NCBI RefSeq assembly: GCF_006345805.1
Contig: NW_021824074.1
Location: 1 to 19,949 of the forward strand
Source of the DNA: Octopus sinensis
Lineage: Eukaryota
Direction: 5' to 3'
Length of the DNA: 19,949 nt
The stretch's first letter is position 1; each line of letters opens with the position of its first letter. A program made the translations under genes and the position numbers. The notes under the pieces are model-generated. The model was not told the DNA's origin and did not search any database. It saw only the letters and a list, made by a program, of their open reading frames with translations. Of the stretch, positions 511 to 19,281 are shown piece by piece.

Positions 511-709
511 GTTCTTTATTAGCCACACAGGGCCGCACACAGATAGAACAAATTACAAGGTAGAGTTTTTTTTGAAGGATTAAAAAAAAAAAAAACAAAA
601 TAAAAAAAAAAAATGGGAAAGGGAGAGTTTCGATCAAAAGGACGTCGTAAAAGGAGAGAAAGAGGACAAAAAAAGGGGGGGGTTAAAAAAAAAAAAAAAA
701 AAAAAAAAA
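511..709 (-). mobile_element. 3' end fragment of a non-LTR retrotransposon (L1/Tx1-like 3' UTR)
   Basis: Homologous to 15167-15506 (ttctttatt.gccacacaggg..gcacacagat.g.acaa.ttacaaggtagag...ttcgatcaaaagg). Minus strand ends GTGTGGCTAATAAAGAAC after a polypyrimidine tract. Lies between GATA arrays. Clade assignment is inference. Confidence 0.6.
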
Positions 710-819: not shown

Positions 820-833
820 GATAGATAGATAGA
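710..833. repeat. (GATA)n microsatellite
   Basis: GATA/GACA tandem array. Confidence 0.95.
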
Positions 834-1240
834 TTTCTTTATTGCCCACAAGGGGCAAAACATAGAGGAGACAAACAAAGACAGACAAAGAGATTAAGTC
901 GATTACATCGACCCCAGCGCGTAACTGGTACTTAATTTATCGACCCCAAAATGATGAAAGGCAAAGTCGACCTCGGCGGAATTTGAACTCAGAGCATAAA
1001 GGCAGACGAAATACCTATTTTTTTACTACCCACAAGGGGCTAAATACAGAGGGGACAAACAAGGACAGACAAACGGATTAAGTCGATTATATCGACCCCA
1101 GTGCGTAACTGGTACTTGATTTATCGACTCCGAAACTATGAAAGGCAAAGTCGACCTTGGCGGAATTTGAACTCAGAACGTAACGGCAGACGAAATACCG
1201 CTAAGCATTTCGCCCGGCGCGCTAACGTTTCTTCCAGTTC
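834..1240 (-). mobile_element. tRNA-derived SINE family A, composite (head-body-tail-body-tail) with AATAAAGAA-type tail
   Basis: Minus strand has an A-box-like segment (CTGGAAGAAACGTTAGC), B-box GAGTTCAAATTCC and central GTCGACTTTGCCTTTCAT..GGGGTCGATAAATTAAGTACCAG. The 124-bp body occurs at 1076-1199 and 892-1015; tails at 1016-1075 and 834-891. GATA arrays on both sides. Confidence 0.85.
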
Positions 1241-1242
1241 AA

Positions 1243-1255
1243 GATAGATCGATAT

Positions 1256-1326
<71 letters not shown>
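1243..1326. repeat. (GATA)n microsatellite
   Basis: Tandem array. Confidence 0.95.
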
Positions 1327-15166: not shown

Positions 15167-15506
15167 AGTTTCTTTATTGGCCACACAGGGCTGCACACAG
15201 ATGGGACAAGTTACAAGGTAGAGCTTTTCTTTCGAAGGAGAAAAAAAAAAGGTGGCGTAGGTTTTCGATCAAAAGGGATCGTAAAAGGGAAAAAAGAACA
15301 AAAGGAAAAGAAGAAAAAAAGAAAAAAAGGAAAAGAAAAAAAGAAAAAGAAAAAAGGAAAAAAAAGAAAAAAGAAAAAAGGAAAAAAAAGAAAAAAGAAA
15401 AAGGAAAAAAAAGAAAAAAAGGAAAAAAGAAGAAAATGAAAAAAGAAGAAAAGAGAAAAAAAGGGGGAGAGGAAAAGAAACGATCAATAGGGATCGTGTA
15501 TCACAG
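15167..15506 (-). mobile_element. 5'-truncated L1/Tx1-like 3' UTR insertion with 13-bp TSD
   Basis: TSD TGTATGCAAGATA at 15154-15166 and 15507-15519. Minus strand ends GCCCTGTGTGGCCAATAAAGAAACT after a long polypyrimidine tract. Homologous to 511-709. Confidence 0.75.
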
Positions 15507-15513
15507 TGTATGC

Positions 15514-16084: not shown

Positions 16085-16292
16085 TAACACAGGGCCAACA
16101 ATATTAAGAGGATGGATTGTACGATGACACCGACCGCACAGCCCTTCCTTCCCACCAGAACTTGTAGTTGACAGATTTTATTTCATCGATTATAAAAAAG
16201 ATGGAAGGCAAGGATGATCTCGGCGGGATTTGAGCTCAGAACGAAAAAGAGCAAGAAGAAATACCGTTAATGGATTTTGTCCGACGCGCTCA
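16085..16292 (-). mobile_element. Old SINE family A
   Basis: GATGGAAGGCAAGGATGATCTCGGCGGGATTTGAGCTCAGAACG...GAAATACCG. Confidence 0.75.
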
Positions 16293-16294
16293 TT

Positions 16295-16410
16295 CCAAAG
16301 GATGAAAGGCAAAGTCGACCTCGGTGGAATTCGAACTCAGAACGTAGTGGCAGACGAAATACAGTTAAGCATTTCGTCCGGCGTGCTAACGATTCTGCCA
16401 GCTCGCAGCC

Positions 16411-16411
<1 letters not shown>
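16295..16411 (-). mobile_element. SINE family A 5' part
   Basis: Head GCGAGCTGGCAGAATCGTTAGC and B-box GAGTTCGAATTCC on the minus strand. Confidence 0.88.
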
Positions 16412-16468
<57 letters not shown>

Positions 16469-16599: not shown

Positions 16600-16995
16600 C
16601 CTTTCTACTGGAAGCACAAGGCTTCAAATTTGGGGGAAGGGATTAAGTCAATTACATCGACCCCAGGGTGTAACTGGTACTTAATTAACCGACCCCGAAA
16701 GGATGAAAGGCAAAGTCGACCTCGATGGAATTTAAACTCAGAACGTAGCGGCAGACGAAATACCTATTTCTTTATTGCCCACAAGGGGCTAAACATAGAG
16801 GGGACAAACAAGGACAGACATAGGTATTAAGTCGATTACATCGATCCCAGTGCGTAACTGGTACTTAATTTATCGACCCCGAAAGGATGAAAGGCAAAGT
16901 CGATCTCGATGGAATTTAAACTCAGAACGTAGCGGCAGACGAAATACCGTTAAGCATTTCGACCGGTGTACTAACGATTCCGCCAGCTCGCAGCT

Positions 16996-16996
<1 letters not shown>
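16600..16996 (-). mobile_element. Composite SINE family A: head, body, AATAAAGAA tail, body, (ATC/ATT)n tail
   Basis: 124-bp body at 16825-16948 and 16641-16764; internal tail 16765-16824; terminal tail GCCTTGTGCTTCCAGTAGAAAGG(ATC)n. Confidence 0.88.
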
Positions 16997-16997
<1 letters not shown>

Positions 16998-17056
<59 letters not shown>

Positions 17057-18078: not shown

Positions 18079-19281
18079 CAGTAGTTTTATTTTTATAGCG
18101 TGCTTTCACTTCACTACGAGCGCAGCTCTGTGTGCCTTGGGTATGTGCTGTGATTTGTCGTGATGCTCTGATGGTTACTGTATTGAAAGTGTTCTTCGTA
18201 GGATGTGTGCAGTGCCCAGTAGTGCAATTTTCTGTATGTTATATGTGTTTGTAAGTCCTGGTATTTTTGTTATGTATTTGTCTGAATATTTTTTTATCAT
18301 GCCTAATGTACCTACTATGATAGGAATTTTTCTGTTTTTAGATTCCACATTCTAGTTACCTCGATTTCCAGGTCTTTGTATTTTGAAAGTTTCTCCATTT
18401 CTTTTAGAGACACGTTGTCATCTGCTGGTATTGATACATCAATTAGAAAGTATTTTTTTTCTTCATGATCCCTGACAACTATATCTTGTCTGTTGGCCTT
18501 AATTTCTCTATCTGTGTGTATTGGCATATCCCAGAGTATGGTCGCTTTCTCGTTTTCTGTGACCTTTTCTGCTGTGTGCCTATACCATCTTTTTTCTGTT
18601 GTTATTCCATAATGTTGGCATAGCTTCCAGTGTATGTAGGTCCTAACTCTGTCGTGTCTGTGAATATATTCCTTCTTAGCCAGGACTGGGCAGCCAGAGA
18701 TAATATGATTTATTGTTTCTTGTCAATCTCCACATATTCTGCAGTTACTTGTTATATTTCTTTTCATTATATAATAGAAATATTAAAATATTTATAAGAT
18801 TGCCATATTAGTGTGGTGATAACTATTAATTTTCATTATATGTTTTTGGTAATTTCTGGTGGGAAGCTTTGGTTTTGTGCTGCAATTAAAAATCCCTCTG
18901 TCTCTGCTTTGAGTCCTCAGCTTCTCAACCATTGCTGGGATTTTTCTTTGTCTATTTCATTTGCGTTTAGTTTAGTCCAGTATTTGCCATGAAGGGGCTT
19001 TTCTTGACATCGTTTTATCATGGTCCGTTACTGTTCTAGTTTTATTTTGGATTTCATTTGTTTTATAGCTTTTGTTGTGTCTTCTTCTTCTTCTTCTTCT
19101 TATTCTTCTTCTTCTTCTTCTTCTTCCTTTCTCTTCTTCTTCTTTCCTTCTCTTCTGCTTCTCCTTCTCCTCCTCCCTTCTCTTCTCTTCTTCTTCTTCT
19201 TCTTCTTCTTCTTTTCTTCTTCTTCTTCTCTTCTTCTTCTTCTTCTTCTTCATATTTGTTAGGTGGTATGATTTCTTGTTT

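Follow-up and report, generated by a model that had tools for sequence, protein, structure and literature searches.

Target-specific LINEs are known to aim at rRNA, snRNA, microsatellites or DNA transposons. Several described systems, each cited here from partial text, bring together SINEs, their partner LINEs and tandem organization. Tx1-Mar LINEs and their SINEU passengers insert in Mariner-N4_AMi, and Tx1L inserts in Tx1D (Kojima 2015, PMC4494074). Co-transcription with the target is discussed in the same paper as strengthening specificity. Tandem SINE arrays are ascribed mainly to recombination in PMC11481361 and PMC10702118; the authors of the former invoke unequal recombination, and the term Tx1 is absent from its main text. 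MetaSINEs are defined by a 66-bp Meta-domain following the tRNA head (PMC4824008).

The array-forming SINE of Octopus sinensis described below is a variant of the Tx1-Mar/SINEU system. In both cases a Tx1-type LINE prefers another transposon, the SINE has the same preference and SINE insertions occur in tandem (PMC4494074). The target of Tx1-Mar/SINEU is an unrelated DNA transposon, whereas in the octopus it is the head of the passenger SINE itself. Tandem SINEU-3 copies sandwich a duplication; in the octopus, 5′ homology would remove the second head. Unlike in Tx1-Mar/SINEU, the specificity of the octopus LINE extends to the base, and the target and the promoter spacing would be rebuilt (PMC4494074).

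The TSD1-(SINE)n-TSD1 arrays of another mollusc, Scapharca broughtonii, resemble those of the octopus in that the first SINE has a full head, the rest are truncated at one tRNA-head position and a single duplication surrounds the array (PMC11481361). However, they comprise ~3% of the S. broughtonii SINEs, against ~35% of tail-bearing loci in the octopus, and their internal units are devoid of the tail end, which octopus units retain.

Squamate SINE-derived satellites (sSat) and jerboa Dip/B1 multimers also consist of units cut from a SINE (70–290 nt) with one longer terminal unit, and homogeneity of the squamate satellites grows with unit number (PMC10702118). They are rarer, longer, often subtelomeric and ascribed to recombination or repeat insertion; the octopus arrays, in contrast, are short and dispersed, have a mosaic make-up and are linked to the target site of a LINE. 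Of the features that define sSat, a unit shorter than the SINE and a longer terminal unit are found in the octopus, whereas at least four homogenised middle units are not: 21 of 22 unselected arrays have 1–2 junctions, and only long arrays are homogenised.

MetaSINEs and the octopus SINEs OK, OR1 and OR2 share with the present family a common central body and exchangeable tails, and have a tRNA-like head, which in the present family is putative; tandem, dimeric or self-targeting behaviour of OK/OR1/OR2 is not mentioned in the available text of PMC4824008. The available parts of PMC4758252, PMC5804259 and PMC6007223 add nothing decisive. In the full-text literature searched, the array-forming octopus system is undescribed; Repbase, Dfam and subscription papers lay beyond that scope and may bear on its novelty.

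Arrays in the window and the SINE family

The window, i.e., the whole 19,949-nt stretch of DNA that was analysed, contains two arrays (Table 1). A 184-bp reiterated unit with a fixed junction had been proposed at 834–1240 in the first-pass annotation. It is borne out by a TRF repeat at 833–1199 (period 184 bp, 2.0 copies, 88% match) and by exact matching of the junction, AAATA directly followed by GGTATTTCGTCTGCC, which occurs twice within the window, at 1016/1015 and 16765/16764. Locus 1 (minus strand) consists of a head, unit 1 (1199–1016) and unit 2 (1015–833), with (AGAT)n runs on both sides that would mask its outer target-site duplication. The head-body-tail-body-tail order given in the annotation is correct for locus 1. 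At locus 2, where the junction and the period were said to recur (16641–16948), the junction is present, but the second tail differs and the 60-bp tail is internal only.

Units 1 and 2 of locus 1 agree at 162 of 184 positions. They deviate from the family majority at 7/184 and 16/184 positions, respectively, none of them common. Unit 1 is likely the later-inserted unit and unit 2, with the array-end tail, the original target copy; the divergence fits a newest unit lying nearest the head.

Locus 2 is atypical. Its internal tail is GGGCAAT, rare inside arrays (514 exact junctions vs 22,746 for GGGTAGT). Both of its bodies carry the derived bases 31T, 39A and 40T, a combination present in 0 others of 686 units, and duplication extends to at least body base 40. 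Because the shared derived bases reach position 40, the 5′ join, or conversion afterwards, would have extended further here than usual. The locus-2 stretch is partly present in sequencing runs of five organisms, so the SINE family is common to relatives. A search of this locus for ribozyme families (Rfam, E<=10) gave none, the five matches being at chance level.

Table 1. Positions of SINE, LINE and related features in the window
Feature	Position	Strand	Remarks
Locus 1 SINE head	1200–1240	-	bases 10–50 of the 50-nt head (first 9 nt missing); A-box-like motif
Target site	1200/1199	-	3′ edge of the locus 1 head
Locus 1 unit 1 body	1076–1199	-	124 bp; B-box-like motif at body bases 27–39
Locus 1 unit 1 tail	1016–1075	-	60 bp; GGGTAGT, internal-unit variant; last ~43 nt LINE-like
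Locus 1 unit 2 body	892–1015	-	restart at body base 1; fixed junction 1016/1015
Locus 1 unit 2 tail	833–891	-	GGGCAAT, array-end variant; continues into (ATCT)n microsatellite
(AGAT)n flanks of locus 1	709–834 and 1242–1326	.	
Locus 2 head	16949–16998	-	
Locus 2 184-bp unit	16765–16948	-	body 16948–16825, tail 16824–16765
Locus 2 last body and end	16600–16764	-	last body 16764–16641, then a different SINE tail 16640–16600
Truncated SINE copies	16196–16413	-	truncated head-body, then older partial head-body; tailless; 200 bp from locus 2
LINE 3′ fragment	15167–15507	-	related LINE family; shares the last ~45 nt of the tail; 12-bp duplication 15519–15508/15166–15155, microsatellite edge
Second LINE 3′ fragment	about 512–690	-	similar tail; at (TATC)n microsatellite
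Degraded coding fragments	2628–2990 and 18315–18722	-	presumably C-terminal parts of other non-LTR retrotransposons

The SINE monomer is 234 nt long. Exact 24-mers of the tail end number 95,355 genome-wide, this pattern taking in all tail ends, terminal and internal, and the family makes up about 5% of 600 kb of unselected DNA. It is short, non-coding, high-copy and interspersed, and is flanked by target-site duplications; its 3′ tail is common to a LINE. The A- and B-box-like motifs of the head and body are assigned on the assumption of a pol III promoter, and the body is taken to resemble the Meta-domain of MetaSINEs. No tRNA was found in the sequence by ARAGORN and no relevant Rfam family was matched. 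A run of four T residues is absent from the head and the unit.

Arrays follow the plan H-(B-X)n-end, where H is the head, B the body and X the tail, n ranges from 1 to at least 10, and the last element is X or one of at least three other SINE tails. They mostly start with a head. Among 22 unselected arrays, 21 have 1–2 junctions. Internal tails are nearly all of the GGGTA variant, and GGGCA is mostly terminal: in unselected DNA it accounts for 2/32 internal vs 18/43 terminal tails. Target-site duplications have a modal length of 15–16 bp. A single duplication of ~15 bp surrounds the array at any n, being detected in 84/150 multimers and 61/98 monomers, compared with 4/600 shuffled flank pairs. 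These 248 multimers and monomers are those of the 446 parsed arrays that have a head start and a defined end and do not lie at an edge.

The fixed junction and the LINE target site

The exact 22-mer junction, AAATA joined to GGTATTTCGTCTGCC, has 31,246 copies in the 2.72-Gb genome, whereas the reversed control has none; the native head/body 22-mer has 22,712 exact copies. These numbers rule out chance or a segmental duplication confined to the two loci of the window. In 600 kb of unselected DNA (five hand-picked stretches chosen without regard to the junction), 22 of 63 tail-bearing loci (about 35%) carry at least one tail/body junction, and head/body and tail/body sites stand at 78:32. Extrapolation from the exact count and this sample gives ~6–10 x 10^4 arrays genome-wide.

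The position of the junction does not vary among loci. Of 233 distinct tail ends surveyed in samples not selected for the junction, 127 adjoin unique DNA and 106 adjoin SINE sequence. Exact restart at body base 1 is seen in 90 of these 106; in six, body base 1 follows a few extra tail bases, or a new head begins after 7 body bases. Seven more restart at a second site, head base 18/19, and three elsewhere. This second fixed junction (tail/head base 18; 217-bp period) has 2,493 exact copies genome-wide, mostly with the GGGCA tail variant (L131–L160, L154). In L154 a non-SINE, LINE-like 3′ region stops at the head base 18 site, which suggests a second LINE lineage with its own target site in the SINE head. 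Junctions with the C variant at body base 1 amount to 343 exact copies.

Tail-only matches in unselected DNA provided the link to LINEs. The last ~43 nt of tail X match the 3′ end of L1/Tx1-type LINEs, so the tail is not foreign in origin, contrary to the annotation. Patterns designed to find the tail where the SINE body is absent matched, among the first 100 hits listed, SINE indel variants only. The Pfam domains of the tail-sharing LINEs are Exo_endo_phos, RVT_1 and zf-RVT, with zf-CCHC in ORF1; an RTE-type partner was considered and rejected. The predicted arrangement (APE endonuclease, reverse transcriptase and C-terminal zinc finger in ORF2, zinc knuckle in ORF1) agrees with the architecture of the Tx1 clade. 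The closest solved structures are those of L1 ORF2p, and the top-scoring named homologue is 'Transposon TX1 uncharacterized 149 kDa protein' (31% identity). The designation Tx1-type is thus a putative one, derived from the architecture and one homologue label.

Copies of a young LINE were collected by a DNA search with a flank-free LINE stretch (849 candidates, 40 scored, top 30 taken). In all of these best 30 of 849 candidates the 3′ flank is SINE body base 1. A flank-blind pattern for the LINE 3′ end, with only A excluded at the last position, identified 139 ends; among the first 100 listed, inspected by eye, the body start follows within 2 mismatches in 98, another has an extra tail repeat first and one is unrelated. 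This LINE is therefore target-specific by the definition of Kojima, i.e., more than 20% of flanks being one sequence (PMC4494074, partial text). In about half of the listed ends, body base 1 is the C variant, more than among SINE heads.

At the 5′ side, 22 of the 23 copies with an examined 5′ end are full-length (5.36 kb; L367–L396) and are preceded by the head and body bases 1–16; the single 5′-truncated copy is preceded by the head and body bases 1–14. Near-universal full length is unusual for LINEs, and the set, being the top 30 of 849, may be biased in this respect. An uninterrupted ORF2 frame of 1,134 codons is preserved in 6/22 full-length copies. All 23 copies lie at head/body and none at tail/body. 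The two copies of body bases 1–16 around the LINE agree at base 1 in 22/22 loci and are fully identical in 7/22, which is too few for pure target duplication at 0.4% age; some of the 5′ variants are found at more than one locus.

The LINE copies differ by 0.4% pairwise, and the SINE parts flanking them by 12–13%, outside CpG too. Outer duplications around LINE-bearing SINEs are visible by eye in ~14/23 cases, about half of them with internal mismatches. Because of this age difference and the mismatched outer duplications, the LINE must have entered pre-existing SINE copies, and it did so at exactly the base of the array junction: the fixed junction is a site within the SINE head that a LINE targets. 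A hairpin is predicted between the A- and B-box-like motifs, and the site lies where its loop ends on the 3′ side. One LINE-in-SINE locus was probed for an empty allele, and the joints seen were those that any other SINE copy gives.

The SINE would use the same site. At 40 unique sites occupied by SINEs of the GGGTA type, duplications are 15–16 bp long and GGTA occupies +1 to +4 (0.68–0.93). Outside the duplication, A is found at -11 in 27/40 (p 2e-6), a bias that holds after correction for the 48 cells inspected, and purines at -3/-2 and a pyrimidine at -1 are found in 31–32/40 (p<4e-4). These preferences match the head/body site, i.e., in unique DNA the SINE inserts at look-alikes of that border. 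SINE targeting is loose, since about 55% of tail ends (127/233) lie at unique sites. Full heads directly behind another head/body or tail/body start were found in 16/485 cases, 9 of the 16 at tail/body and several without a matching duplication. In L049, L252 and L444 such an unmerged second head is accompanied by a second copy, at the far junction, of the letters private to the target; L252 holds three units within one head/body duplication.

The young LINE ends in ...GAAATT and the SINE tail in ...GAAATA. The SINE tail is matched more closely by another LINE family, of which the two observed copies lie outside the SINE. The young LINE is too young and too few (139 exact ends) to have built most arrays, and the actual mobiliser is likely an older relative.

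Routes of array growth

The units of short arrays are of independent origin and form mosaics, since neighbours mostly carry no common rare mutations, within-locus distances equal those between loci and one of 8,128 array pairs is sibling-like. Neighbouring units have no rare mutation in common in 79% of 91 dimers, against 90.5% for random pairs. Distances in 41 dimers are 0.100 within and 0.094–0.113 between loci. Comparison of clustering by position and by locus, proposed in the first-pass annotation, was performed as nearest neighbours on these dimers (82 units): the neighbour is at the same position elsewhere for 49 units, at the other position for 27 and in the own locus for 6, i.e., clustering by locus fails and some clustering by position is present. 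Linkage between diagnostic sites decays along the unit and is about zero across neighbours, except for a weak signal at sites 124/128. In arrays of at least five units, 64% of 69 neighbour pairs share rare mutations and 36% share none; these long arrays are additionally duplicated locally. A minority of short arrays, locus 2 included, also share rare mutations between neighbours.

The units also differ in age. Among tail-ended arrays, the lower divergence belongs to the first unit in 33 and to the last unit in 14 (p 0.003); in arrays ending in another tail the ratio is 42 vs 9, subfamily being a confounder. The two cleanest subsets show a leaning only (9 vs 5 and 15 vs 12, p 0.10 each). Sharing of rare mutations is not raised in body bases 1–20 of dimers ending in another tail (0/19). 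The rare C-junctions lie behind C-variant heads in 17/27 cases vs 35/165 (p 2e-5); 34/35 C-variant heads precede a G (non-C) junction, the sample being one in which G junctions were enriched. In the T2 type, which is another subfamily, last units carry donor-type bases at 14/16 in 11/26 scored cases vs 1/17 monomers (p 0.014). The arrays with a C-head and a G-junction, together with the donor-type T2 last units, require RNA-templated ends or movement of whole arrays.

The arrays were most probably built by SINE self-insertion with homology-joined 5′ ends at the LINE target site (probability about 0.75). This had been the first option of the annotation, and it is supported by the LINE at the same base and by the unmerged second heads. 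The enzyme of an L1/Tx1-type LINE would reverse transcribe SINE RNA (head-body-tail) at the head/body border of a resident copy, whatever the tail type of that copy. The new 5′ end could then join the resident head by homology, leaving no second head and a net gain of one 184-bp unit. Each insertion would rebuild the spacing of the A and B boxes and the target, so that the process could be repeated with the newest unit nearest the head. Donor RNA could carry target sequence at both ends, i.e., the head and leader at the 5′ end and read-through at the 3′ end: read-through RNA from a unit lacking the four-T terminator would provide both ends with a few bases of the target and, at times, supply several units together. 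The heteroduplex would frequently be resolved toward the donor. We infer such RNA-carried target ends because of the C-head/G-junction arrays, the donor-type T2 bases and the non-identical copies of body bases 1–16. This agrees with what PMC4494074 (partial text) says about targets that are co-transcribed. Whole-array movement and local duplication likely contribute too, and arrays of at least five units likely grow further through local DNA duplication.

A broader reading, in which LINE and SINE form a closed loop and the SINE serves both as passenger and as landing pad, is possible but, taken jointly, tentative. It assumes that RNA ends carry target pieces used in a guide-like manner, and that the split promoter and the target are restored with every SINE insertion, so that ~10^5 arrays would be ordered in time from the head side. 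It also assumes that LINE landing separates the A box from the B box and silences the SINE copy hit, and that at least two head sites (body base 1 and head base 18) serve different LINE lineages.

Repeated template jumping, also listed in the annotation, is unlikely, disfavoured though not decisively for the SINE arrays. The LINE reverse transcriptase would start on one SINE RNA at a new site and switch via the shared body to other tail-bearing RNAs, giving a mosaic array in one event. Such a route could account for the single ~15-bp duplication around arrays of any length, the mosaic units with linkage decaying along the unit, the chimeric last units and the arrays with a C-head and a G-junction; switching between SINEs has been proposed in PMC4824008 (partial text). 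However, a LINE of 0.4% age within SINE halves diverged by 12%, the aged outer duplications, the truncated LINE joined to the head and 14 bases, the second heads with duplicated private target letters, the sequence preference beyond the duplication and the age polarity are all left unexplained by it.

Multimeric sources are a still less probable main route. Arrays would have been rare in origin and spread as read-through transcripts of many master arrays, as the absence of a four-T run from head and unit, the three units within one duplication in L252, the partial clustering by position (49/27/6 of 82 units) and the weak cross-unit linkage at sites 124/128 would allow. Against this, only 1 of 8,128 array pairs shares at least two rare mutations in both units (~0.2 expected by chance), the commonest haplotype comprises 9/142 first units, and the last-unit families are many and different. 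The near-zero cross-unit linkage and single sibling-like pair, with arrays of 1–10 units, also speak against a single, Alu-like master dimer as the multimeric master copy listed in the annotation. Multimeric sources likely contribute, as the sample of 128 arrays rules out no more than a few dominant masters.

Tandem duplication at the DNA level, by slippage or unequal crossover involving the 124-bp direct repeats, has been proposed for SINE-derived satellites; for the octopus arrays it is highly improbable as the general explanation. It agrees with the shared mutations of the long arrays and of some short ones, locus 2 among them, but in dimers the within-locus distance equals that between loci, internal tails are nearly all of one variant while terminal ones are often of another, and the presence of a LINE at the same base is left unaccounted for. 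Mutation sharing and distances refute it as the main route for arrays of 2–4 units; for the long arrays it stands. Long arrays of otherwise rare junction variants (C1:30020857–30022550 and C1:42138189–42138757), with ten consecutively at 185-bp spacing, can be read as local expansion toward a minisatellite.

A target duplication of ~124 bp, suggested in the annotation, is rejected as a rule by the true duplications of 15–16 bp and by neighbours mostly without common rare mutations, although duplication at locus 2 reaches at least body base 40, and a retrozyme or circular-RNA multimer (rolling circle) disagrees with the mostly head-anchored arrays and with the absence of ribozyme families (Rfam, E<=10) from locus 2.

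Implications and neighbouring elements

A LINE aimed to the base at the head of a SINE that shares its tail would create positive feedback, since more SINE copies provide more safe landing sites. Through self-insertion, a dispersed SINE would give rise to tandem arrays directly by retrotransposition, at an extrapolated scale of ~6–10 x 10^4 loci. In the octopus annotation, 900 recently active SINE families are reported (PMC13282606, partial text); the automated splitting of octopus SINEs into hundreds of families may be explained by self-inserting arrays. The young, precise and mostly full-length LINE offers a tractable system for distinguishing specificity due to the endonuclease from that due to RNA-DNA pairing.

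LINE 3′ fragments at (TATC)n microsatellites comprise the two in the window (Table 1) and two copies in L365, which suggests a sister LINE family targeting microsatellites. In L016/L017, L118 and L123, the SINE arrays are paired at a short distance in opposite orientation.
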